Positions 1,352 through 16,163 of a DNA stretch of 64,000 nucleotides are shown here, one piece after another. How positions within the stretch are numbered: the stretch's first letter is position 1; every line of letters begins with the position of its first letter. The notes beneath the pieces are model-generated. The model was not told the origin of the DNA. It did no database searches and worked only from the letters and a program-made list of their open reading frames with translations. Both the position numbers and the translations under genes were made by a program. Source of the stretch: an uncultured Lentisphaerota bacterium (GTDB lineage Bacteria; Verrucomicrobiota; Kiritimatiellia; CAIQIC01); NCBI GenBank assembly GCA_903896925.1, contig CAITZM010000081.1:12111-76110 (forward strand). Direction: 5' to 3'.

Positions 1352-4174
1352 ATGAAACCCACCCCTACCCTTCTTTCTACCTTGCTGTTGGCGTCGCTGG
1401 GCGCGCTACGCGCGGCCGATTCCGGCGCGACGGCTGTTACCGCGTCTGGCAGCGCAGAGCAACTCGCGGCTCCGGTCAAAATGATCCCCGTCTCCTCGTG
1501 GCATCTGTTCCCCGCCACGGAGGGAACGAGTACGGCCTCCTGTGTGGTGGAAGGCAACACCATCAAACTGGCCTGGCAGGACAGCATCGCCGCAGAATGT
1601 GAACTCGGGTCACTCATCAATAACCGGCTCTACACTCTCGAAGGTCGGGCGCTCGCCCGCGAGTCGGGTGCGAAACTGACGCTGGTGATCAAGCAGTTCG
1701 ATACCAAATATCCAGTGGCAGAAAAACCCGATACCACGACAGAACTGACGGTGAACGGATCGCCGGACGGTTCACAGTTCGCCGTTCCTTTCTATCTGCG
1801 TACGCCTAACACCAAGGTGACGATCTCCATCCAGGCACGCGGTGTGGCGAATGCGGTGTCCGTCAGCAATGTATTTGTGCGCGGGGGTGGCCCTTATGTG
1901 TCACCATTTACTGGTACAACACCCGAAAAGTTCGAGGTCCATGATGTGCGGATCAAGGAAACGTTGGCCGGACGGACATGGGAACAGGCGGAAATCACTT
2001 CCGAAAAGGGCACGGTCAGCTTGTGCATCGCCGGGAAACCGGTGCCCCGGTTTTTCTACAATGGACTCAAGCTGGGAGAAGGGGCCGGACACTACGGTCT
2101 ATTTGCCGAAAAAGGCGTTCATCTGCTCTCGATCAACACCGATTTTGTATCAAGTGAGGTCTGGAAGGCACGCGGCCAGTACGACTTCGCTGTCATCGAG
2201 CGCGCGATCAAACGGGTGCTGGCTGTTGATCCTCAAGCACGAATCATTCTCGGCGTCTGGGCCGACACCTATCCCATGTGGAGCGTGGAGAACCCGGACG
2301 ATGTCTGCGCCAACACAGCCGGGCTGAAAGCGATCGGCGACGCGCATTTCAAAAAGTGGGGCACCGACTCGGGAAAGCTACGTTTTCTACCTTCGGTGTT
2401 TTCCACGAAGGCGCAGCACGATGTCGGCGAAATGCTCGCCCGGATTGACGAGTGGACAGACACGCACGAACTCGGCAAGGCCGTGGTCGGATATTATCTT
2501 TGGGGCTTCAATGACGCGGATTTCGGGCACTGGGTTCATCCCGCCACCTCCGGCGGGGAAAAGGACCTCGATGACTACTCGCCCGCCGCGCGGAAGGCGT
2601 TTCAGGTCTGGTTGAAAAAGAAATACGGCGATGATCGCGCCGCGCTGAGCCGTGCGTGGGGCCGTGCCGACCTGTCGTTCGAGGCCGTAACGCTGCCCAC
2701 TCCCGAACGTCGCCGCGTGAAAGCTGGCGACCTGTTTCCCTGGCTGGGACCGTCGGAGCAGGATGTGCGCGACTTCAACCAATTCTACGGCGAGGCGCCG
2801 GGTGTGTTGCTGGATGGAATCACCTCCCAACTGCGCGCCCAGATGAAGCGGAAGAAAATCGTGGTCACGCATTTCGGAAATGTCATGCACGGCTGGCGAG
2901 GCTATGTCGGCTTGGGGAAAATGATCGACGCTCCCGGCATCAATTGCCTTACGGCCACTTCCGACTACGGCGTTCGTTGGCCGGGCTATACCGGAGGATT
3001 CGACTCGCTGCCCGACAGCCTCAGGCTCAACGGGAAGGCCTTCTTTCACGAGTTCGACTACCGGGCCTTCACAAGCCGGAAAAAGGGCCCGGAGGCCTGG
3101 GACTTCGGTGTGGGGCGTGCCAAGGATGCGGCTGCTCATCAGGCCATGTTCCTGCGCGAGGCGGGGAATCTGGCGGCACACGGCCAGGGCATCTATTGCT
3201 TTGATTTGGATCAACCCAGCTATGCGGATGCCGGTATCATGAACGGCGTCGCCAAGGGCTATCAGCTCTTTACCGCACTGGCCGATGTGCGCGACGCCCC
3301 GGAAGCGGACGTGGCCCTGTTCGTCAATGAGCAGAGCGTCAGTTCGCTGTGTGAGGATCCGGAATCATCGCGTTTTCTGATGCGCCTGACGCGCCGCCAT
3401 CGGCCGCAATGGGATACCTCCGGCGTGCCGTATCATGTCTATCTGCAACGCGACATCACCAACCAGCGCCTGCCCGACTACAAGGTTTATGTCTTCCTCC
3501 TGCCGCAGGCCATCAGCCCGGCAGAACTCAAGGCCATCAATGCCTTGAAGCGGGATGGGCACACGCTGGTCTTCCTCCATGCACCCGACTTGTTGAACAA
3601 CACGGCTGCACCGACCGAGTCGCTCTCCGCGATTTTGGAGATGAACGTCATCCGGTTAGCTGGTCCGCAGCCTCTCGCCGGCGTCTGGCGCCAGTCGGAG
3701 CATCCGCTCGTGAAGAATCTGTCGGACCGCTTCGGCGACCGGCCGATTCCGTGGGCGTTCACCGACCGTGAAAGCCGCGGACTGGCCTTTGCCGTTGCGG
3801 ACAAGGCGGCCGTCCCACTTGCGGAATACCGGGACTCGGCGGACATCGCCTGCGCCGTGAAGGAGTTTCCAGAATGGCGCTGCGTATTCATGGGCGTTCC
3901 GTGGCTGGAAGCGCAATTCATGGCCAACCTTGCGCGCACCGCCAGCGCCTGGCGGGCAGGCGAGCCGCACGACGCGGTGTTCGCCAACCAGCACTTGATC
4001 ACCATCCATGCCCTGTCCGCCGGGAAGAAAGCGCTCACTCCTCGCCAGCCTTCTAAGATTACCGATGCTATCACTGGTGAAGTGATCGCCGAAAAGGCCG
4101 GTGAATTCACCGTGGAGATGCCCTTTGGAGAAACACGCGTGTTTCGCACCGAAGCCCAGCCCTTTTCACGATAG
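1352..4174 (+). CDS. secreted glycoside hydrolase, GH42 (beta-galactosidase)-like, 940 aa
   Basis: N-terminal signal peptide (MKPTPTLLSTLLLASLGALRAA). The central stretch DYSPAARKAFQVWLKKKYG..AALSRAWG resembles the GH42 catalytic-domain signature. Long uninterrupted ORF next to a pectin-lyase-like gene. Confidence 0.5.
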   Translation: MKPTPTLLSTLLLASLGALRAADSGATAVTASGSAEQLAAPVKMIPVSSWHLFPATEGTSTASCVVEGNTIKLAWQDSIAAECELGSLINNRLYTLEGRALARESGAKLTLVIKQFDTKYPVAEKPDTTTELTVNGSPDGSQFAVPFYLRTPNTKVTISIQARGVANAVSVSNVFVRGGGPYVSPFTGTTPEKFEVHDVRIKETLAGRTWEQAEITSEKGTVSLCIAGKPVPRFFYNGLKLGEGAGHYGLFAEKGVHLLSINTDFVSSEVWKARGQYDFAVIERAIKRVLAVDPQARIILGVWADTYPMWSVENPDDVCANTAGLKAIGDAHFKKWGTDSGKLRFLPSVFSTKAQHDVGEMLARIDEWTDTHELGKAVVGYYLWGFNDADFGHWVHPATSGGEKDLDDYSPAARKAFQVWLKKKYGDDRAALSRAWGRADLSFEAVTLPTPERRRVKAGDLFPWLGPSEQDVRDFNQFYGEAPGVLLDGITSQLRAQMKRKKIVVTHFGNVMHGWRGYVGLGKMIDAPGINCLTATSDYGVRWPGYTGGFDSLPDSLRLNGKAFFHEFDYRAFTSRKKGPEAWDFGVGRAKDAAAHQAMFLREAGNLAAHGQGIYCFDLDQPSYADAGIMNGVAKGYQLFTALADVRDAPEADVALFVNEQSVSSLCEDPESSRFLMRLTRRHRPQWDTSGVPYHVYLQRDITNQRLPDYKVYVFLLPQAISPAELKAINALKRDGHTLVFLHAPDLLNNTAAPTESLSAILEMNVIRLAGPQPLAGVWRQSEHPLVKNLSDRFGDRPIPWAFTDRESRGLAFAVADKAAVPLAEYRDSADIACAVKEFPEWRCVFMGVPWLEAQFMANLARTASAWRAGEPHDAVFANQHLITIHALSAGKKALTPRQPSKITDAITGEVIAEKAGEFTVEMPFGETRVFRTEAQPFSR

Positions 4175-4395: not shown

Positions 4396-4447
4396 GCGAA
4401 AGAAAAAGTCACCCGGCGGCCGTCACGAAAGTGACGGTCGCCGGGTG
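4396..4447 (-). terminator. rho-independent terminator for the minus-strand regulator gene ending at 4457
   Basis: 17-bp near-perfect inverted repeat (CACCCGGCGGCCGTCAC GAAA GTGACGGTCGCCGGGTG, one mismatch) at 4410-4447. On the minus strand it is followed by a U-rich tract (ACUUUUUCUUUCG). Confidence 0.6.
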
Positions 4448-4456
4448 CATCAACCC

Positions 4457-5098
4457 TTACATCGCTCGTGCTGCCCGTAGCCCGGCCCGCCAGGCCGGCA
4501 ACCGGCCGACCTCGCGCACCAGGCTTGCTCCCCAGCAGCCGTTGAGCTTCCGCCCGATCCGCCGCTTGGCCTGCGTCACCGCCGGCGCGCTGACCTGGCA
4601 ACTGAACGCGATCTCGTTGGTGCCACGGCCTTCCACCAGCGCCTGCAGCACCTTGAGCTCGCGGATGGTCAGCAGCGGCTCGATCAGCGACCAGTCGATG
4701 TCGCGCGCCGCCAACGTAGCAGCATCCTCGCCATCCGATGCCAGCAGGTCGCCGAACGTCAACTCCTCGCCGGCCTCGTCATGCGCCGGGGCCTCCATAT
4801 CGGCCATGACCACCTGCTTGTCGAGTGTGGCGCCGGGGCACATGGCGTCCATCCTGCCTGCGTACTGCGACCGATGGCCGGATTTGAGCCGCTGGATCGT
4901 GTAGTAGGCCACGCTCCTGGGCATCAGCTCCTTACCCTGGTTCTCCAACACCTCGATGGCCTGGGCGGCCATGCACATGCCGTCCTGTACCAGCTCTTCG
5001 GGGTCTTCCGCTCCGGTGGTCTTCACTGCCTGCGGCACCACCGCGATCAGCATCGGCTGGATGACGTCCAGCAACAGCTCGCCTGCTCTTGGGCTCAT
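4457..5098 (-). CDS. sigma-70 region-4 / LuxR-type HTH regulator, 213 aa, island-encoded
   Basis: C-terminal segment ELKVLQALVEGRGTNEIAFSCQVSAPAVTQAKRRIGRKL fits the region-4 / LuxR HTH pattern. Dedicated upstream promoter and downstream terminator. Paralogous segment at 7715-8335. Confidence 0.5.
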   Translation of the reverse strand: MSPRAGELLLDVIQPMLIAVVPQAVKTTGAEDPEELVQDGMCMAAQAIEVLENQGKELMPRSVAYYTIQRLKSGHRSQYAGRMDAMCPGATLDKQVVMADMEAPAHDEAGEELTFGDLLASDGEDAATLAARDIDWSLIEPLLTIRELKVLQALVEGRGTNEIAFSCQVSAPAVTQAKRRIGRKLNGCWGASLVREVGRLPAWRAGLRAARAM

Positions 5099-5195
5099 AC
5101 GCCCTCCTGAAATGCAGACGGCCCCACGCGGCCGCCAAGGTTGGTTGGTCGGCCGGCGTGGGCGGCAGGAGGCGAGTGCTAACCCGACTCAGGCT

Positions 5196-5225
5196 ATTAT
5201 GCCGGGGTAACACATGACGGTTTAA
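5196..5225 (-). promoter_or_regulatory. sigma70-like promoter copy 1 (minus strand: TTAAAC, 18-nt spacer, CATAAT)
   Basis: Plus strand reads ..tattatgccggggtaacacatgacggtttaagc... The reverse complement gives TTAAAC-N18-CATAAT about 95 nt upstream of the start codon at 5098. The same module recurs at 7482-7509 and 7575-7602. Confidence 0.45.
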
Positions 5226-6121: not shown

Positions 6122-7270
6122 CTAGCGTCCCGGCTGGGGGCGCCGGGGCTGGCCGGGTGTCGGCTGGGAGGCGGGGCTGCGCAGCGGCATCAGCACATGG
6201 AGGCCGCCCTGCCGGTCACGGCTGTACAGCGGGCCCTGCCCATCCGCCCAGCGGAACGCACGGAACCCTGCGGCCAGCGCGGCCAGCAGGTAGGTGCGGT
6301 CCACGCTGAGGTGGGCGGTGTGCGGTTCGAGCGTGCTGCTGGGGAGCCGCAGGCTGGTGGACGGTGGCGCGGGGTCCCCTGCGCGGCTCACCACGACGGC
6401 GCCCGCCTGCCGGTGGAGCGTCACCCCGGCAGGCTCGAGCTCCTGCCCTGTGAACAGCGGGAGCGCCTCGGTCAGCAGTCCGGCATCCGCCTCGCTGATG
6501 GTCAGCACCCACGCCCCTGCGGACGGTGGGATGACCTGGCGCCAGTGCGGGAAGGTGCCGCCGATGGTGCGCACCTGGTAATCCCAGCGGAGCGTCACCA
6601 GCCGGAACCAGCCGCCCGCCTGGTCGGCCGAGTACCCGACCTGCAGCTCCGTGGGCGTGAGCTCGGTCCAGAGCAGGAACTGGCTCGCCGGGACAATGCA
6701 GCTGGTGCGGAACGGCTGGCGGACCGTGTTGAAGGCGCTCAGGCGCCGGCCATCCGTGGCCACGACGTAGTCCCCCTCCGCGCTGCTGTCGAGATACAGG
6801 CCGCCCAGGCTAGGTCGGGACGTGTCGCGCGACGCGAACGGCGCGGCTTTGCGCAGGTGGCCGAGCAAGGCGGGATCGACCGCGCCGACCTCGGGCTTGG
6901 GCGGCAGCAGCGGCCACTCGTCCAGTGGGGTGGCCGTCACCTCGCGGCTGAGCCGCTGGCCGGCGAAGGTCTGGGTGAGTTGGAGGCGGTGGTCTACGGA
7001 GCCAAGCTCGACGGCTTCCGCTCCCCGGCCGTGGGCCAGGCGGCTGAGCTCCGTGAACGGCACGAGGGTCTCACCCGCGGTTTGGATGTGGGCTGATCCG
7101 CAGCGGTAGGCCAGCACGCTGTCGAGATCGGTCGCGGTAAGTGTGAGCCGGCCTGGGTAGGCGCTGAGCCTTACGAGTTGGAACACTGGCAGGGTGGTTT
7201 TAGGGGGCACGACCTTGGACAGGCCGGCCAGGGCGTCACGCAACTCGTGACGCGGGAGTGTTATTTTCAT
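6122..7270 (-). CDS. DNA polymerase III beta sliding-clamp (DnaN) homolog, divergent. Alternative upstream ATG at 7471 would add a 67-aa Pro-rich extension.
   Basis: MKITLPRHELRDALAGLSKVVPPKTTLPVFQLVRL..LTLTATDLD matches the DnaN N-terminus. Later blocks match too: YVVATDGRRLSA corresponds to VATDGHRLAV, GGTFPHWRQVIPP to DGRFPDYRRVLP, and HVLMPLRS to VVMPMRL. Length about 383 aa is clamp-like. Confidence 0.65.
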   Translation of the reverse strand: MKITLPRHELRDALAGLSKVVPPKTTLPVFQLVRLSAYPGRLTLTATDLDSVLAYRCGSAHIQTAGETLVPFTELSRLAHGRGAEAVELGSVDHRLQLTQTFAGQRLSREVTATPLDEWPLLPPKPEVGAVDPALLGHLRKAAPFASRDTSRPSLGGLYLDSSAEGDYVVATDGRRLSAFNTVRQPFRTSCIVPASQFLLWTELTPTELQVGYSADQAGGWFRLVTLRWDYQVRTIGGTFPHWRQVIPPSAGAWVLTISEADAGLLTEALPLFTGQELEPAGVTLHRQAGAVVVSRAGDPAPPSTSLRLPSSTLEPHTAHLSVDRTYLLAALAAGFRAFRWADGQGPLYSRDRQGGLHVLMPLRSPASQPTPGQPRRPQPGR

Positions 7271-7481
7271 GGGTTTCCTGGGGTTGGAGGTGGCGGCGCC
7301 CTTGGTCTGGCGCACAGCTTCGGCGCTGAGCCGGGTGCTGGGCACCCGGCGGGGAGGGCCTGCGCGGACGCCGTGCAGGCGCCGCAAGTCTTCCTCCGAC
7401 AGGGCGGCGGCGGGCCCGGGGAAATACGGCATCAGGCTCCTTGGGTGGGAGTGTGGTGACGGGTTAAACATCCGTCATCTT

Positions 7482-7509
7482 ATTATGCCGGGGTAGGGGG
7501 GTGTTTTAA
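7482..7509 (-). promoter_or_regulatory. sigma70-like promoter copy 2 (TTAAAA-N16-CATAAT) immediately upstream of the clamp-homolog ORF
   Basis: Reverse complement of cttattatgccggggtaggggggtgttttaag. The -10 element ends about 10 nt before the ATG at 7471. This gives either a leaderless transcript from 7471 or an approximately 200-nt leader for the ATG at 7270. Confidence 0.45.
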
Positions 7510-7574: not shown

Positions 7575-7602
7575 ATTATGCCGCGGCAAGACGGGCTTTT
7601 AA
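7575..7602 (-). promoter_or_regulatory. sigma70-like promoter copy 3 (TTAAAA-N16-CATAAT), tandem with copy 2
   Basis: Reverse complement of agtattatgccgcggcaagacgggcttttaagg. It lies 93 bp upstream of copy 2 and shares the TATTATGCCG(G/C)GG core. Confidence 0.4.
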
Positions 7603-7714: not shown

Positions 7715-8335
7715 CTACACCGGAACTCCTTGTGCGGTTCCGCTGCTTGGAACTAAGGCGGCCCAGGCCTTTCGAACTGTGGGGCCGCGGTGTTGCACGC
7801 AGCCAAGCGCCAAGAAAAACAGGCCGACCGCGCCGAGCGCAAGGCTGATGAGCCGCAGTACTTTTTGTTTTGTCAGGGCCGCAAGCGCCCCGAGCGCCCT
7901 GGCGATTTGAAAGGGCGTGACGCTTTTCGCGGGCGTGTTGTGGCGCTGCACAGGCCACGCGGACGACGCTCTCCAGCAGCCGCTGATCTTCCGTCCGCTC
8001 CGCCGCCTGGCCTGGGTGACCGCCGGCGCCGCCACCTGACCGCCGCACGCGCTCTCGCTGGTGCCGGGGCCCGCTACCAAGGCCGGCAGCACCTGTTGCT
8101 CGCGCTCGCTCAGCCCCGGCCGCAGTCCCTGGCGTAGCTGAGGGCGCGCCACGCCGTTCCCTCGGCCTAGCTGCCGGGCTTGCTCCCGGGGGCCTGTTTC
8201 GGCGGCTGTTGCGCCGCCCACAGCAGCCCGGCGGCCTGGGCCAGCAGGCCTGGTTTTCGGGTTGCCAGGGGGCGCGCCCCGAACCGCCGCTGCCGCGGCC
8301 GCCCCCTGGCCGGTGGCCGCACCTGGCCGGCGCAC
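7715..8335 (-). CDS. degenerate paralog of the region-4/LuxR HTH protein, with a C-terminal hydrophobic segment and a low-complexity N-terminus. Possibly frameshifted or pseudogenised.
   Basis: QVAAPAVTQARRRSGRKISGCWRAS aligns with QVSAPAVTQAKRRIGRKLNGCWGAS of the 4457-5098 protein. The ORF overlaps the 8167-8817 ORF by 169 nt in another frame. The Gly/Ala-rich N-terminus looks like a frame artefact. Confidence 0.3.
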   Translation of the reverse strand: MRRPGAATGQGAAAAAAVRGAPPGNPKTRPAGPGRRAAVGGATAAETGPREQARQLGRGNGVARPQLRQGLRPGLSEREQQVLPALVAGPGTSESACGGQVAAPAVTQARRRSGRKISGCWRASSAWPVQRHNTPAKSVTPFQIARALGALAALTKQKVLRLISLALGAVGLFFLALGCVQHRGPTVRKAWAALVPSSGTAQGVPV

Positions 8336-9466: not shown

Positions 9467-9857
9467 GGTTCACGTCCTTCCGCATAAGCTGTTCATCAAT
9501 TTCAGCCTGCGCAGGCTAGCAAGCGCGGCAGATTTTGTCAGCGAAAAATGCACACGATCATGCGCCGTGCTCAGGCAGCCCGCGCGGTTTCGGTATCGTT
9601 TCTATTTGACGCAACGGGCGTGGGAGTGCCCGGCAGCGTGTCCGGAGTCCGGGCTGTCCATGGGGTTGCACGGCTCTCAGCCCTGTGCTAATTTACGTGC
9701 ACATGAAGCGTAGGTATAAACTTGGGTCAAGCTGACCGGTGGCCGCGGAAAAGAAGCGGCTGTTGGCTGGCGCGGTGCAGACGGTCGCGCCAGTCGAGCG
9801 CGCCGCGGACCGGCCGGGTGTGGCGGACGGAAGCCTTTGCCGGCGTGGAGAGCGACG

Positions 9858-10539: not shown

Positions 10540-12699
10540 TCAGGCGAAGGGCATCAGGCGGCCGGGGGGGCCGTTGAGTTCGTCGTTCCAGTCGGCGGGT
10601 TTGGCGCCGGCGATGGTGGCGATGCGGCGCGAGGTCAGCACCGGTGCGCGCGCGTCGCGCTCCCGCACCGGGATGGCCTCGAGCGCGAAAATCTGCTGCG
10701 GGATCGGCGGCTTGCCGGGATCCTTGTAGCGCACGTAGAGCGCGGCCGGGTTGTCGTCGGCGAAGAACCGGACCACCGCGCCCTTGGCGCCGAGGCGGTA
10801 CTCGCGGTTGGTGATCAGCCCGCCGGTGACGAACCGCCGGAGGTGCGTGAAGAGGTCGAACTCGTAGACCACCGTCAGCACGCGCTCGCGGTCGAGGATG
10901 GAGCAGTGGAGCAGCGTGCCATCGACGAACAGCTTGTCGGCCGGCGCGACCACCTTGCAGCGCCCGTCGCGCCAGACGAGCAGCAGCTTGTCGAGCGGCG
11001 AGCAGGTGAGCAGCGGCTCGCCCGCGATCTTGTGGCCCAGGTAGCCCTTCTCGCGGTCGTAGGCGATGGCCAGCGCGTCGGAGGTCAGCTCGCGCTCGGA
11101 GATCTCGCCGAACTGCGCGAGCTGCGTGCGCCGCGGATAGTCCGCGCCGTATTTCTTCAGCAGGTTCCGCAGGTAGCGGATGGCGTAGGGCGCGAGCGCG
11201 TCCAGGTTCTGGCCCACCTCCGCCAGCTCGGCGCGGCTGCGCTCCAGCTCCGCCCGGTTCTTCTCGATGTCGAACAGCGAGATGCGCCGGACGGGGATGC
11301 CGAGCAGCGTCTCCAGGTCGTCCTTGGTCACGTCGCGCTGGAGCTGGTCGCGGAACGGCAGCAGCCCGTCGAGCACGGCCTGCTGCACGGCGGCCGCGGT
11401 GGCGCAGGTCTCGATGCTCTTGTAGATGCGCTGCTCGATGAACAGGCGGACGAGCGTCAGGCCGTGGAGCGCGTCCACCAGCTCGCGGCGCCGGTGCAGC
11501 AGCTCGGCGCGCAGCAGCTCGACCAGCCGCGCCGTGTTGTGGCGCAGGATCTCCGGCACCGTCAGCTCGACCGGCTTCTGGTCGTGGATGACGACGATGC
11601 GGCTGGCGACCTGCACCTGGCACTGCGTGAAGGCGAAGAGCGACTCCATGGCGCGGGCCGGATCCTGGTCCGGCGGCAGCTTGATCTCGATCTCGACCTG
11701 CTCGGCGGTGAAGTCGTTGAGGCTTTTGAGCTTGAGCCGCCCCTTGCGCGACGCCTCCTCGATGGAGGCCATGACCGCGTCGGTCGTGACGCCGAACGGC
11801 AGCGAGCGCAGCACCAACGTCTGTTCATCCTTCTGCTCGATGTGGGCGCGGAGCAGGACGTGCCCGCGCCCGTCGTCGTAGGCGCGCGCGTCCATCAGGC
11901 CGCCCTGCGGGAAGTCGGGCAGCACGCGGAGCGCCTTCTTCTGGAGGATGGCGATCTGCGCCTCGAGCAGCTCCGCGAAGTTGTGCGACAGGATGCGCGT
12001 GGAGATGCCCACGGCGATGCCCTCGGCGCCGAGCATCAGCAGCAGCGGGATCTTCGCCGGCAGGGAGACCGGCTCCTGCTTGCGGCCATCGTAGGACGGC
12101 ACGTACGCCGTGAGCGCGTCGTTGAACAACACTTCGCGCGCCAGGGGCGTCAGCCGGCACTCGATGTAGCGCACCGCGGCGGCCGGGTCGCCGGTGAAGA
12201 TGTTGCCGTAGTTGCCCTGCCGCTCGATCAGGTACTGCTTGTTCGCCAGCGTGACGAGCGCGTCGCCGATCGAGGCGTCGCCGTGCGGGTGGAACTGCAT
12301 GCAGTAGCCGACGATGTTGGCGACCTTGATGAACTTCCCGTCGTCGTTTTCGTGGAGCGAGAACAGGATGCGCCGCTGCACCGGTTTGAGGCCGTCGTCG
12401 AGGTCGGGGATGGCGCGGTCGCGGATGACATAGGCGGCGTACTGGAGAAAGTTGCTGTCCATCATCTGCTTGAGCGCGCCGTCGCCGGTGGCCTTCAGGC
12501 CCGTGGCTGGCGTTGCGGGCGGCATCTGGACAGCGTCCGTCCCGCCTTCGGCCGGGCTGTTGCCTACGGCTGCGGGGATGGCAGCGGCCGGCGCCGGCGG
12601 GGCCTGCATGCCGGGGAGTTCCGGCGCGGGCCCCGGATCGGGGTTTGGCGCGGGGTTGAACAGCGGCAGCTCGCCGGGTTTGTCGTCGGGCGCGCTCAC
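10540..12699 (-). CDS. parC: type IIA topoisomerase subunit A, ParC-like (topoisomerase IV) by size
   Basis: GLKPVQRRILFSL motif, then HPHGDASIGDALV. The active-site Tyr sits in AAVRYIECRL. Length 719 aa with no GyrA-box, so ParC is favoured over GyrA. Start overlaps the parE stop (ATGA). Confidence 0.8.
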   Translation of the reverse strand: MSAPDDKPGELPLFNPAPNPDPGPAPELPGMQAPPAPAAAIPAAVGNSPAEGGTDAVQMPPATPATGLKATGDGALKQMMDSNFLQYAAYVIRDRAIPDLDDGLKPVQRRILFSLHENDDGKFIKVANIVGYCMQFHPHGDASIGDALVTLANKQYLIERQGNYGNIFTGDPAAAVRYIECRLTPLAREVLFNDALTAYVPSYDGRKQEPVSLPAKIPLLLMLGAEGIAVGISTRILSHNFAELLEAQIAILQKKALRVLPDFPQGGLMDARAYDDGRGHVLLRAHIEQKDEQTLVLRSLPFGVTTDAVMASIEEASRKGRLKLKSLNDFTAEQVEIEIKLPPDQDPARAMESLFAFTQCQVQVASRIVVIHDQKPVELTVPEILRHNTARLVELLRAELLHRRRELVDALHGLTLVRLFIEQRIYKSIETCATAAAVQQAVLDGLLPFRDQLQRDVTKDDLETLLGIPVRRISLFDIEKNRAELERSRAELAEVGQNLDALAPYAIRYLRNLLKKYGADYPRRTQLAQFGEISERELTSDALAIAYDREKGYLGHKIAGEPLLTCSPLDKLLLVWRDGRCKVVAPADKLFVDGTLLHCSILDRERVLTVVYEFDLFTHLRRFVTGGLITNREYRLGAKGAVVRFFADDNPAALYVRYKDPGKPPIPQQIFALEAIPVRERDARAPVLTSRRIATIAGAKPADWNDELNGPPGRLMPFA

Positions 12700-14513
12700 G
12701 CGTCGGCCTCCACGACCAGGTGGTTCATGATGTAGGCGCGCCGCTCGGGCGTGTTGCGGCCCATGTAGAAATTCAGCACCGCGGGCACGCTGTGCCGCTG
12801 GCTGACGCGCACCGGCGTCAGCCGCATCGCCGGGCCGATGAACTGCTTGAACTCCGCCGGCGAAATTTCGCCGAGCCCTTTGAACCGCGTCACCTCGGCG
12901 CCGCGCAGGCCCTTGACGGCGGTGTCGCGCTCGGCCTCGGAATAGCAGTAGTGCGTCTGCTTCGCGTTGCGGACGCGGAAGAGCGGCGTTTCGAGGATGT
13001 GGACATGGCCGTTGTGGACCACGGGCTCGAAGAAGCGCAGGAAGAACGTCAGCAGCAGGTTGCGGATGTGCAGGCCGTCCACGTCAGCGTCGGTGGCCAG
13101 GATGACCTTGGCGTAGCGCAGGCGCTCGGGCGACTCCTCGATGTCGAGGCTGCGCATCAGGTTGTAGAGCTCCTCGTTCTTGTACATGATGTCGCGGTTG
13201 AGATCGCAGACGTTCAGCGGCTTGCCGCGCAGCGTGAAGATCGCCTGCTTCATGACGTCGCGGCAGCTGACGATCGAGCCGCCGGCGGACTGGCCCTCGG
13301 TCAGGAAGATCATCGTCCCCTCGCCGGCGCCGGTTTCCGCGTCGAAGTGCTGCTTGCAGTCCTTGAGCTGCGGCACGCGGATCGAGGTGGAGCGGGCGCG
13401 CTCGCGGGCCATCTTCTTGATGGACTGCAGCTCCCGGCGGAGCTTGACGCTTTCCGCGATCTTGGCGAGCGCCTTCTCCGCCGCCAGCGGCTGGCGGTGC
13501 AACAGGTCCACGACGGCCTCGCGGACCTGCCCGACCAGCTCGCCGCGCAGCTCGGAGTTGCCCAGCTTGTTCTTGGTCTGCGACTCGAAGACCGGCTCCT
13601 GCAGGCGGATCGAGATCGCGCCGGCCATGCCCTCGCGGATGTCGTCGCCCTCGAATTTCTCCTTGGAGAACTCGTTGAACGCCTTGACCAGCCCCTCGCG
13701 GAACGCGCTCAGGTGCGTGCCGCCGTCGCGCGTGAACTGGCCGTTGACGAACGAAAAGAAGGTTTCCTCGAAGCGGTTGGTGTGGGCGAAGACCAGCTCC
13801 AGCGTCTTCGAGCGGAACGCCAGCGGCGGGTAGAGCGCCTCGTCGCCGACCTCGTCGCGCAGCAGGTCGCGCAGGCCGTCGCGCGAGTGGTAGACCTCCC
13901 CGTTGTATTCCAGTCGCAGCCCGGCGTTCAGGAACGCGTAGAGCTGCAGCCGGCGGGCGAGGTGCTCCTCGACGTACGCCGCCTTGCCGAAGATCTCCGG
14001 GTCGGGCTCGAAGCAGATGAACGTGCCGTCCGGCTCCCCGGGCGCCTCGCCTTGGGTTTCCTTCTTCAGCTTGCCGCGCGCGAAGACCGCGCCGGCGAAC
14101 ACGCCCGCGCGGAAGCTGCGGACCTCGAAGTGGGCCGAGAGCGCGTTGACCGCCTTGGTGCCGACGCCGTTGAGGCCGACGCTGAACTGGAAGACCTCGT
14201 TGCTGTACTTGGCGCCGGTGTTGATCTTCGAGACGCACTCCACCACCTTGCCCAGCGGGATGCCGCGCCCGAAGTCGCGCACCGTCACCCGCATGCCCTC
14301 GCGCGTCACCGCCACGCGCTGGCCGCAGCCCATGATGAACTCGTCCACGGCGTTGTCGACGATCTCCTTGAGGAGGATGTAGATGCCGTCGTCGTAGTCG
14401 AGGCCGTCGCCGACGCGGCCGATGTACATGCCCGTCCGCTTCCGGATGTGCTCCAGCGGCGAGAGGGTCTTGATCTTGCCCTCGTCGTAGTTGTGTTGTG
14501 GCGGCTTGCTCAT
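12696..14513 (-). CDS. parE: type IIA topoisomerase subunit B, ParE-like (topoisomerase IV)
   Basis: RKRTGMYIG, LLKEIVDNAVDE, QFSVGLNGVGTKAVNALS, EGQSAGGS, ILATDADVDGLHIRNLLLTFF. Length 605 aa without the GyrB insertion. Confidence 0.8.
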   Translation of the reverse strand: MSKPPQHNYDEGKIKTLSPLEHIRKRTGMYIGRVGDGLDYDDGIYILLKEIVDNAVDEFIMGCGQRVAVTREGMRVTVRDFGRGIPLGKVVECVSKINTGAKYSNEVFQFSVGLNGVGTKAVNALSAHFEVRSFRAGVFAGAVFARGKLKKETQGEAPGEPDGTFICFEPDPEIFGKAAYVEEHLARRLQLYAFLNAGLRLEYNGEVYHSRDGLRDLLRDEVGDEALYPPLAFRSKTLELVFAHTNRFEETFFSFVNGQFTRDGGTHLSAFREGLVKAFNEFSKEKFEGDDIREGMAGAISIRLQEPVFESQTKNKLGNSELRGELVGQVREAVVDLLHRQPLAAEKALAKIAESVKLRRELQSIKKMARERARSTSIRVPQLKDCKQHFDAETGAGEGTMIFLTEGQSAGGSIVSCRDVMKQAIFTLRGKPLNVCDLNRDIMYKNEELYNLMRSLDIEESPERLRYAKVILATDADVDGLHIRNLLLTFFLRFFEPVVHNGHVHILETPLFRVRNAKQTHYCYSEAERDTAVKGLRGAEVTRFKGLGEISPAEFKQFIGPAMRLTPVRVSQRHSVPAVLNFYMGRNTPERRAYIMNHLVVEADA

Positions 14514-14758
14514 GCGTCAGGGGCGGTGACTGTAGCAGCCTCGAATCCGGAAACAAGCGCGGAAGCGGCGGCGGCAGATGAACACTCCACCACGAAGGCA
14601 CGCAGCGCCAGCCAGGGCGGTCGTGCGGGGTGCAGCTTCCTGCTTTATGGTCCATGGCTGATTCTCCCCACCTCTGTGCCCTCTGCGGTGGAATTTCCTC
14701 CGCTTCCTCCGGCCGCTCGCGGCTTTGCCAAAGCGGGGAAACGTGCTAGCGTGGGCCC

Positions 14759-16114
14759 GTGACGTTGCGCATTGCCAGCTTCGGGGTCAGGGGGTTCGTC
14801 GGTGTTTCGCTCACGCCGAAAGTCGCGATGGATTTCGCGGGGGCGTTTGCCGCGCACCTCGGCGGCGGCCGCGTGCTGCTCGGCCGCGACACGCGCGGCT
14901 CGAGCGCGATGCTCCACGCCGCGACCTTGAGCAGCCTCGTCGGCGCGGGCTGCGAGGTGCTCGACCTGGGCATCTGCCCGACGCCGCTCCTCCAATATGC
15001 CGTCCGGCCGCGCGGCGCGGCCGGCGCTCTCTCCATTTCCGGCGGCCACAACGCGATGGGCTGGAACTCGCTGACTTTCATCGGGGCGGGCGGCGAATTT
15101 CTCGACCCCGTCGGCGGCGAAGCCGTGCTCGACCGCTACCATGCCGGCGCCTTCCTGCTGGCCGACTGGGCGCACCTGGGCACGGTCCGGGCGGTGAACG
15201 ATGTGGCCGCGCCGTACTTCGAGGCGCTGGTGGAGCGGCTCGATGTGGCGGCGATCCGCGCCGCGCAGCTGACGGTGCTGATCGACCCGGTGGGCGGCGC
15301 GGGCTGCGCGTTTCTCGAGGAGTTCGCGCGGCGGCTCGGCGTCCGCCTGCTGCCCATCAACGCCCACCCTTCGGCCTATCTCGCGCGCGAGCCGGAGCCG
15401 CGGCCGCGCAGCGCGCGGCAGATGGCCGGCATCATCAGCCAGCTCGGCGGCGACGCGGGCTTCCTGCTGTCCAGCGACATGACGCGCCTCTCGCTGGTGT
15501 CCGAGACCGGCGAGCCGGCGAGCGAGGAGTGCACGTTCGCGGTGATCGCCAACCACGTCCTCGGCCGCAACGCCGGCACGGTGGTCACGAACACGTGCAC
15601 GACGCGGATGATCGACGACATCGCCGCGCAGCGCGGGGCGCGGCTGGTGAAGACCTGCGTCGGGCAGGCGTACATCGTTTCGGCGCTGCTCGACGAGCAG
15701 GGCGTCCTGGGCGGTGAGGGCAGCGGCAGCGCGGTGCTGCCGGACTTCAGCCGCGCGTTCGACGGCTTCCTGATGATCGGCCTGGTGCTGGAGGCGATGG
15801 CGCAGCGCTGCCAGAAACTTTCGGCCCTGCTCGGCGCGCTGCCGCGCTACCAGATCGTCAAGCGTCAGATCCGCTGCGATTCGCGCCACGGCTATCGCGC
15901 GCTCGACTTCCTTAAGGCGCAGCTGCGCGCGCGGCCCGATGCCGGCACGCTGGACCAGACCGATGGCCTCCGCATGGACTGGCCCGACGGCTGGGTGCAT
16001 GCGCGCGCCTCGCGGACCGAGCAGCTCGTGCGCGTCATCTCCGAGGCCCAGACGCGCGCCGTCGCCGTGCAGCGCGCGGACGAGGTCGAACGGCTGATCG
16101 AGCAGGAAATCTGA
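14759..16114 (+). CDS. phosphohexomutase-family paralog lacking the catalytic Ser and the metal-binding Asp loop. Probable pseudo-enzyme.
   Basis: Aligns along its full length with the downstream PMM/PGM. The active-site motif reads SGGHNA instead of TASHNA. The DPDGDR metal loop is replaced by SSDMTR. The GEGSG sugar-phosphate loop is retained. Confidence 0.6.
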   Translation: MTLRIASFGVRGFVGVSLTPKVAMDFAGAFAAHLGGGRVLLGRDTRGSSAMLHAATLSSLVGAGCEVLDLGICPTPLLQYAVRPRGAAGALSISGGHNAMGWNSLTFIGAGGEFLDPVGGEAVLDRYHAGAFLLADWAHLGTVRAVNDVAAPYFEALVERLDVAAIRAAQLTVLIDPVGGAGCAFLEEFARRLGVRLLPINAHPSAYLAREPEPRPRSARQMAGIISQLGGDAGFLLSSDMTRLSLVSETGEPASEECTFAVIANHVLGRNAGTVVTNTCTTRMIDDIAAQRGARLVKTCVGQAYIVSALLDEQGVLGGEGSGSAVLPDFSRAFDGFLMIGLVLEAMAQRCQKLSALLGALPRYQIVKRQIRCDSRHGYRALDFLKAQLRARPDAGTLDQTDGLRMDWPDGWVHARASRTEQLVRVISEAQTRAVAVQRADEVERLIEQEI

Positions 16115-16163
16115 TGAACATCGAACACCGAACATTCAACATCGAACATCGAAGTAAAGAGGA

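Follow-up and report, generated by a model that had tools for sequence, protein, structure and literature searches.

The 64,000-nucleotide stretch of DNA considered here, referred to below as the window (positions 12,111 to 76,110 of the forward strand of contig CAITZM010000081.1, assembly GCA_903896925.1, from an uncultured Lentisphaerota bacterium), includes a minus-strand gene for a highly diverged sliding clamp of the DnaN type, the beta subunit of DNA polymerase III. We conclude, with a probability of about 0.62, that this gene is an expressed relic of a clamp that belonged to a mobile element, a relic that evolves under relaxed constraint and has a reduced or lost function; its expression, its binding partners and its residual or lost function are what we infer. 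The clamp lacks the C-terminal tail of its relatives, its third domain evolves neutrally, and the enzymes encoded beside intact members of its family are missing from the window.

The window protein is a diverged three-domain clamp

An initial annotation, made from the letters of the sequence, had described a beta clamp recognizable across all three domains, much more divergent than a housekeeping dnaN and lying outside the dnaA-dnaN-recF context. All three descriptions hold. The clamp core begins at an MKITLPR sequence and ends with a stop codon 18 residues beyond the conserved HVLMPLR strand. The scoring of the three Pfam domains proposed as a check was borne out in part: the N-terminal domain (DNA_pol3_beta, PF00712) scores 34.5 bits, above its gathering score of 24.4, whereas the central domain (PF02767) reaches 16 bits against a gathering score of 27 and the C-terminal domain (PF02768) gave no match to the window protein in the Pfam scan. 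The central and C-terminal domains are visible only via structure and via PHROG_947 ('DNA polymerase processivity factor'), which matches residues 68–433 of the maximal open reading frame (ORF) over profile positions 3–366 of 368 (E = 2.6e-24). A phmmer search of the PDB sequences returned beta clamps only (top E = 6e-14). Structure prediction, also proposed as a check, gave a clamp fold. The AlphaFold2 (AF2) model of residues 68–449, built on 21 family sequences, has a pLDDT of 84.1 and a pTM of 0.77, and a Foldseek comparison with the PDB gave only bacterial beta clamps among its top matches, at TM (template modelling) scores of 0.76–0.80 and 21–23 % identity over approximately 390 columns; hence, all three domains are present. 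The divergence is apparent from TIGR00663, the dnaN equivalog model, which matches residues 68–322 (E = 8.9e-20) with 70.9 bits and does not reach its cutoff of 137.65.

The TATDLD, VATDGRRL and LMPLR motifs align with T172-D173-G174-R176 and M362-P363-R365 of the Escherichia coli beta clamp. In the family alignment, the columns of the peptide-binding pocket equivalent to E. coli L155, T172, D173, G174, P242, V247, M362, P363 and R365 are invariant, the window protein included, and the column equivalent to R176 is nearly invariant, with the residue retained in the window protein. The assignment of the pocket residues follows the established structural literature, and the E. coli sequence in the alignment has 366 aa, in agreement with the PDB sequence search.

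The window protein is thereby confirmed as a three-domain DnaN-type clamp that is far more diverged than a housekeeping DnaN. In the model its three domains form a half-ring; this would pair head to tail into a dimeric ring, loaded on DNA by a clamp loader, and the conserved pocket is predicted to bind peptides. There is no dnaA, recF or gyrB in the neighbourhood of the window clamp, the neighbours being a helix-turn-helix (HTH) gene, a GemA-like gene and genes without a family match. This supports the view that the gene is not the housekeeping dnaN; its origin as a clamp paralogue of a mobile element is supported by the surroundings of its relatives. A role as a component of a defence system was considered and rejected, as PADLOC 2.0 gave no match for six window proteins, the clamp among them, or for the tailed relative P0003.

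The relatives are tailed clamps encoded on mobile elements

A search of 5.8 billion proteins for relatives of the window clamp found 20 close relatives at E ≤ 1.6e-33, with canonical DnaN proteins of 364–373 aa beginning only at E ≥ 8e-16. The window clamp shares 57–66 % identity with P0002–P0010 (approximately 65 % with tailed clamps), and the nearest relative in a scan of one genome per species is only 46 % identical. A family profile searched against 1.84 billion cluster representatives identified at least 873 clusters at 50 % identity with representatives at E ≤ 1e-30, and the best 150 of these representatives are nearly all 450–540 aa long and match the full profile, tail included. The earlier statement that accessory clamps on mobile elements are rare is not supported, given the number of clusters in this family alone.

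All 20 aligned relatives have their N-terminus at MKITLPR or a near variant of it, and 19 of the 21 aligned sequences continue beyond the HVLMPLR strand into a tail made up of a Pro/acidic linker of approximately 60 aa followed by a conserved helical segment of approximately 55–60 aa. Among 168 sampled representatives, 148 are at least 440 aa long, the presence of the tail in them being judged from length, and these 148 full-length proteins share a C-terminal pattern, R..L..LQ.[VI].[ILV]-COOH, with R at −12, L at −9, L at −6, Q at −5, [VI] at −3 and [ILV] at −1 relative to the stop. The AF2 prediction for P0003 consists of a clamp, a disordered stretch at residues 368–427 (pLDDT approximately 30) and helices at 430–465 and 467–484 (pLDDT 64–73). 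The suggestion that the terminal LQ.V.L-COOH might be a clamp-binding motif that docks in the pocket stays speculative, as its register differs from those of QL[SD]LF and QLxLxL; AF2 places most of the segment in a helix with moderate confidence, and the docking idea has no statistical support.

The scan of one genome per species yielded 514 loci with clamp relatives. The best 80 of these are mostly in metagenome-assembled genomes (MAGs) of Verrucomicrobiota, Lentisphaerota, Planctomycetota and Kiritimatiellia, several with two copies; Prosthecobacter and Chthoniobacter are among the genera whose MAGs carry the clamp. Two distinct tailed clamps were seen on separate contigs of single MAGs in six cases (L022/L023, L038/L043, L033/L046, L061/L063, L062/L065 and L060/L080), which is consistent with several elements per genome. 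When a tailed member was compared with the INPHARED phages and PLSDB plasmids using tblastn, only distant clamps with 23–29 % identity were found and the tail was never covered; hence, the family has no member in either collection. Literature searches found nothing on DUF3150, on DUF1257/DUF2997, on a clamp with a WGR-ligase or on clamps of integrative and conjugative elements in the Planctomycetes-Verrucomicrobia-Chlamydiae (PVC) group, and on dnaN paralogues of mobile elements they returned only work on host DnaN.

To order the surroundings of these clamps, all ORFs of 85 fetched loci were clustered and placed relative to the clamp gene, and two recurrent co-oriented architectures were recovered, together accounting for approximately 60 loci. 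In type A, where the clamps are at least 34 % identical to the window protein, the order is a small upstream gene, sometimes a 103-aa membrane protein, the tailed clamp, c18 (cluster 18, 70–80 aa), a protein of approximately 150 aa, a PD-(D/E)XK nuclease, DUF3150, DUF1257, DUF2997 and c28. In type B, where the clamps are 27–33 % identical to it, the order is c14, a protein of approximately 150–175 aa, the PD-(D/E)XK nuclease, a protein combining WGR and ATP-dependent ligase domains, the tailed clamp, DUF3150 or DUF932, and then DUF1257-DUF2997-c28-AAA ATPase (Pfam assignments). In PADLOC 2.0, the relatives' nuclease matches Cas4-like models and the ligase matches WGR, in both cases generic domain models only. 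The loci are flanked by genes for RadC, an orphan N6-methylase, a PcfJ-like protein, a 1220-aa FtsK/SpoIIIE protein and DUF932, and by bacteriophage exclusion (BREX), GmrSD and restriction-modification (R-M) genes.

None of the nearest relatives (E below 1e-33) adjoins dnaA and they lie beside genes of mobile genetic element (MGE) type, in agreement with the proposal in the initial annotation that this is a mobile-element clamp. Canonical PVC dnaN genes recovered in the same scan encode proteins of 364–377 aa, form a separate group and have dnaA directly upstream in 8 of 13 cases. The further proposal of a processivity factor for an element-encoded polymerase finds no counterpart in these loci: no polymerase is found among the conserved neighbours of the clamp family, the conserved partners being the nuclease and the ligase. 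The family, large and hitherto undescribed, resides on mobile elements of Verrucomicrobia and related bacteria, in regions that resemble integrative and conjugative elements or plasmids.

Loss of the tail and relaxed selection

No remnant of the family tail is detectable in the window. The closest tail-less relative, L002, has a clamp 65 % identical to that of the window; a 144-aa gene and the HTH gene follow it in the same order, but the locus lies elsewhere on the chromosome, among other genes. Just past its clamp stop, at L002 positions 11121–11234, it retains approximately 38 out-of-frame tail codons (AAQLKEAPDAVAELRSAAQDLGRADPQRR; tblastn E = 1e-7). A frameshifting deletion therefore removed the tail, and the tail-less form of the clamp is derived.

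The ratio of non-synonymous to synonymous substitution rates (dN/dS) was estimated by the Nei-Gojobori method for the window versus L002, with a Fisher test against neutrality. For the whole clamp dN/dS is 0.62 (dS 0.39), made up of 0.57 for domain I (p = 0.018), 0.45 for domain II (p = 0.0046) and 1.0 for domain III (p = 1). The GemA-like neighbour of approximately 150 aa and the HTH gene give 0.38 and 0.26, respectively. Tailed clamps in intact operons give 0.25–0.37 and their nuclease 0.12, in a comparison that sets a single sequence pair for the window beside pairs with higher, partly saturated dS. On these values the window clamp appears to be under strongly relaxed constraint, with its decay incomplete. 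Neither the truncation nor the nearly neutral evolution of domain III had been noted in the initial annotation.

Several points weigh against a relic of a mobile-element clamp, beginning with the uneven basis of that comparison. In both tail-less lineages the clamp ORF is uninterrupted over 382 codons, the ratios of domains I and II are significantly below 1, the pocket residues are unchanged in the window clamp, and the tandem promoters described below and the order clamp, GemA-like gene, HTH gene are kept in two species in different chromosomal contexts. A domesticated clamp with a still useful function is therefore possible. At 74 % GC, ORFs stay open over long distances by chance and the intactness of the ORF is therefore weak evidence either way. 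As to the mobile element itself, the genes flanking the family point to elements of integrative or conjugative type, but the conjugative character is deduced from accessory genes, and no relaxase, type IV secretion system or integrase was identified within the 10-kb flanks.

The most serious alternative is a fully functional, domesticated tail-less clamp, co-regulated with the HTH/sigma-like gene, which would form a ring, use the host loader and recruit host polymerases or repair enzymes by means of the intact pocket. Besides the invariant pocket and the selection on domains I and II, the confidently predicted fold, the retention of promoters and gene order in the second species at another chromosomal site, and a promoter motif shared with multi-copy HTH genes argue for it. 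However, domain III, which supplies half of the pocket and the dimer interface, is the part that evolves neutrally, in L002 a frameshifting deletion has removed all but a remnant of the tail, the small upstream gene is degraded in both lineages, and the conserved enzymatic partners are all absent from the window. We regard full function as possible, though rather unlikely.

Promoters, operator candidate and start of translation

Within 6.6 kb there are exactly two sigma-70-like sites (P1 and P2 in Table 1), both of the form TTAAAA-16-CATAAT, against a chance expectation of 0.4. This agrees with the description of the gene as lying directly behind a reiterated promoter, and we regard the tandem sigma-70-like promoters predicted here as real and conserved. 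The 9-mer GGCATAATA occurs in three exact copies (0.08 expected), the third at 5203–5195 before the 213-aa HTH gene, where a related site, P3, has the form TTAAAC-N17-GGCATAAT. HTH-gene paralogues at other sites in these metagenomes have the motif in front of them as well, and it was found nowhere else in the 1.17 Mb of fetched loci. The tandem promoters probably still drive transcription of the window clamp, with a start predicted near 7475 for P2, and the HTH/sigma-like protein may act on promoters of the form TTAAA-N-GGCATAAT. Directly after the −10 hexamer of P2 lies an inverted repeat that is a candidate operator; in the ancestral operon it could have been the operator for the small upstream protein.

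Homology to the separate small gene that precedes type-A clamps (66–78 aa; consensus RYPWPAS..LT.EDM..L...RE....PIT.LIA.AVR.TYG) extends over residues 14–67 of the maximal ORF, the window region matching L003 at 9480–9680 (tblastn E = 5.8e-7). In L006 and L007 the small gene is in another reading frame and is closed by its own stop at the clamp start; in the window the two are fused because no stop codon intervenes. The window copy carries non-conservative changes at conserved positions (W to G, I to S twice, Y to K), and the small upstream gene of L002 is broken by frameshifts. A ribbon-helix-helix fold for the small protein is no more than a guess from a pattern seen by eye, as neither Pfam nor a profile search of PDB sequences gave support for it.

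The first in-frame ATG, at 7471, was noted initially as lying about 10 nt from the −10 element, and this is correct, the hexamer ending at 7482. It was further suggested that expression could be leaderless, giving a protein (449 aa) with a Pro-rich N-terminal extension of 67 aa. The spacing, the open frame and a coding-like GC content at third codon positions (GC3) are in keeping with this. However, the equivalent codon in L002 is ACG, no Shine-Dalgarno sequence precedes ATG 7471, and this ATG falls in the loop of the inverted repeat at the transcription start; the extension is homologous to an independent gene. ATG 7432 has a strong Shine-Dalgarno sequence (AAGGAG at 7442–7437, spacing 4 nt), and ATG 7270, preceded by AGGAAA at 7279–7274, corresponds to the N-terminus of all 20 aligned relatives. 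The leaderless form is thus very improbable. Translation probably starts at ATG 7432, giving a 436-aa fusion, which is the product on record (P0001, P0265), and/or at ATG 7270, giving the 382-aa clamp. The segment 7433–7471 is probably 5′ leader and not coding; Rfam gave no match to the leader at E ≤ 1.

Neighbouring genes and the variable region

Table 1. Features of the clamp locus in window coordinates
Feature	Position	Strand	Remarks
HTH cassette (sigma-70 region-4/LuxR-type)	4413..5225	minus	P3 5225-5196; gene 4457-5098, 213 aa; terminal hairpin 4412-4444
GemA-like protein, 147 aa	5305..5748	minus	cluster 2, commonest clamp-family neighbour, 47 loci
c18, 70 aa	5759..5971	minus	downstream of clamp in type-A operons; tblastn to L007 E 7e-14
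Maximal ORF, 449 aa	6122-7471	minus	first in-frame ATG at 7471
Beta-clamp-fold core, 382 aa from MKITLPR	6122..7270	minus	three domains; stop codon 6122-6124
Degenerate small-gene homologue	7271..7432	minus	fused in frame to clamp; GC3 0.87
First 13 codons of maximal ORF	7433..7471	minus	from ATG 7471; inside inverted repeat at transcription start; probable 5′ leader
Inverted repeat GATGACGG-N9-CCGTCACC	7455..7479	minus	directly after P2 −10; core GACGG-N9-CCGTC conserved in L002; candidate operator
Promoter-like P2, proximal	7482..7509	minus	TTAAAA-16-CATAAT in CTTAAAA-N14-GGCATAATA; conserved in L002 at 9758
Promoter-like P1, distal tandem copy	7575..7602	minus	93 nt upstream of P2; conserved in L002 at 9685
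Decayed copy of HTH-gene C-terminal part	7964..8125	minus	76 % nucleotide identity to 4527-4679
Two co-oriented genes, 216 aa + 215 aa	9466-8819, 8817-8167	minus	upstream of promoters
parC stop codon	10540..10542	minus	right edge of variable region with clamp module

The small upstream gene (degenerate and fused), c18 and the GemA-like gene are all present and co-oriented with the window clamp, and no nuclease, ligase, DUF3150, DUF932 or DUF1257 set was found in the 64-kb window by tblastn. The c18 gene occurs in 16 loci, in the same orientation as the clamp in all of them, and could encode a clamp partner; its products share YxVxL, DTGRR and EYTHA motifs, a Pro-rich stretch and a conserved hydrophobic C-terminus, ...[LM]A[LMV]AA. 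The C-terminal ~90 aa of the 147-aa neighbour match Pfam GemA (PF06252) with 24 bits (E = 8e-5), below the gathering score of 27, and only 4 of 39 relatives of this protein match GemA at E < 0.01. A Mu-like prophage was rejected, with the GemA match below threshold, topoisomerase IV genes upstream, housekeeping genes downstream and no transposase or structural genes.

The HTH cassette sits where intact operons have the PD-(D/E)XK nuclease. Its 213-aa product matches Pfam GerE (E = 1.9e-7), and a member of its 90 % cluster is named 'sigma24 family protein' in one source. The cassette is a self-contained repeat unit made up of its own promoter, a leader, the gene and the terminal hairpin. Window positions 5210–4413 match L089 at 88 % nucleotide identity, and copies with this identity occur at unrelated loci in the same metagenomes (L086, L089, L090 and L091), for example after a Sel1-repeat gene and before a ThuA gene. 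Short contigs ending at the cassette suggest assembly breakage. The decayed fragment upstream of the promoters has 61 % amino acid identity over 54 residues to the 213-aa protein, and the long ORF around it does not have a coding-like GC3 pattern. Neither of the two genes further upstream (216 and 215 aa) is matched by any family in Pfam, PHROG, NCBIfam or PADLOC and, among the 85 loci, they occur only in the window and the near-identical contig L001.

Upstream of the clamp, at 10540–16135 (minus strand), lie a 496-aa gene without a family match and, after it, the topoisomerase IV genes parE (605 aa) and parC (719 aa), an operon with overlapping stop and start codons that is syntenic without the clamp in L093. 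L093 is 93 % identical to the window in nucleotide sequence through parE-parC; its collinearity with the window ends at the parC stop, and beyond this point (12130 onward) it carries an R-M system in which a methylase of the Eco57I type is paired with a BsuBI/PstI restriction enzyme. The region that holds the clamp module is therefore variable, as anticipated when the locus was called a putative island, and the position after the parC gene seems to be a hotspot for cargo. Synteny with L093 also covers the adjacent phosphoglucomutase/phosphomannomutase (PGM/PMM) and omptin-family genes. A gene at 1352–4174 (plus strand) encodes a secreted protein of 940 aa that weakly matches GH42 beta-galactosidase; its GC3 is 0.72, versus 0.96 in parC and parE. 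This gene may also be acquired DNA, and the variable region may extend to the window's left edge.

It is extremely improbable that the clamp gene is an exceptionally diverged dnaN on which the organism depends as its only replicative clamp gene. Nothing beyond the clamp fold and conserved pocket speaks for this, and against it stand the lack of a dnaA, recF or gyrB context, a TIGR00663 score at half the cutoff, the close identity to tailed clamps, which in their visible context adjoin MGE-type genes, the distinct grouping and frequent dnaA linkage of canonical PVC DnaN, the neutral domain III and the absence of the locus from a close relative with a 93 %-identical parC.

Proposed origin of the window copy

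In the scenario that we favour, the window gene would descend from an accessory clamp of integrative or conjugative-type elements, mostly of the PVC group (Verrucomicrobiota, Lentisphaerota, Planctomycetota and Kiritimatiellia). Where the element is intact, the tailed clamp would be co-transcribed with the small upstream protein, the 70–80-aa protein, the weakly GemA-like protein, the Cas4-like nuclease and often the WGR/ATP-dependent ligase, with DUF3150/DUF932 and the DUF1257-DUF2997-AAA set downstream. The family clamp would form a ring on DNA, its pocket and tethered tail bringing together, on element DNA, the nuclease and ligase that the element encodes and probably polymerases of the host as well, for replication or repair. 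The window copy would be a stripped derivative downstream of parC from which the tail, nuclease, ligase and remainder of the element have gone, and in which the HTH/sigma-like cassette would have taken over the nuclease position.

Comparison with known systems

Like the DnaN clamps of E. coli (2pol, 1mmi) and mycobacteria (8djq, 3p16), the window clamp has a three-domain fold, with a TM score of approximately 0.8, and conserved pocket residues. It differs from them in its identity of 20–23 %, its position below the TIGR00663 cutoff, its unrecognized central and C-terminal Pfam domains, its location in a variable region without the dnaA-dnaN-recF context and its neutral domain III. It also serves as an annotation warning: the gene would be labelled 'DNA polymerase III subunit beta', although it appears to be a truncated relic with a fused upstream gene.

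Accessory clamps are usually treated as rare curiosities, for instance phage processivity factors or griselimycin resistance copies. The beta-clamp paralogues of phages and plasmids (PHROG_947, such as p081 of Rhizobium phage 16-3, and dnaN of Streptomyces/Kitasatospora plasmids) resemble the family in being accessory DnaN-type clamps on mobile elements, but the best matches share 25–29 % identity, none covers the family tail, and in its operons the family is accompanied by a nuclease and a ligase instead of a polymerase. The likeness to phage Mu is limited to the weak GemA similarity of the 147-aa neighbour over its C-terminal part; that match is below the gathering score, and no Mu-like transposase or structural genes lie near the window clamp.

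The genuinely new part is the operon of tailed clamp, nuclease and ligase, and the family is more interesting than the window copy. In archaea and eukaryotes, the PCNA-Fen1-Lig1 toolbelt combines a clamp with a nuclease and a ligase, and the intact relatives likewise encode a clamp with a nuclease and an ATP-dependent ligase, though the analogy is functional only. The family clamp is of the bacterial beta type, its nuclease is a Cas4/RecB-like PD-(D/E)XK enzyme and not a flap endonuclease, and the window copy has neither nuclease nor ligase. If the operon works as a unit, mobile elements would bring with them a DNA-tracking platform plus end-processing and sealing enzymes, which would bear on the establishment of conjugative and integrative elements in PVC hosts, about whose mobile elements little is known. 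A still broader proposal, which we consider doubtful and put forward only tentatively, is that the family constitutes an undescribed replication/repair module of mobile elements in which the tailed clamp organizes the Cas4-like nuclease and the WGR/ATP-dependent ligase on incoming or replicating element DNA, the host having retained the tail-less window form as a clamp that acts on its own, controlled by a sigma/HTH regulator specific to the lineage and by that regulator's TTAAA-N-GGCATAAT promoters. Were this so, the module would be for bacteria what the PCNA toolbelt is for archaea and eukaryotes.

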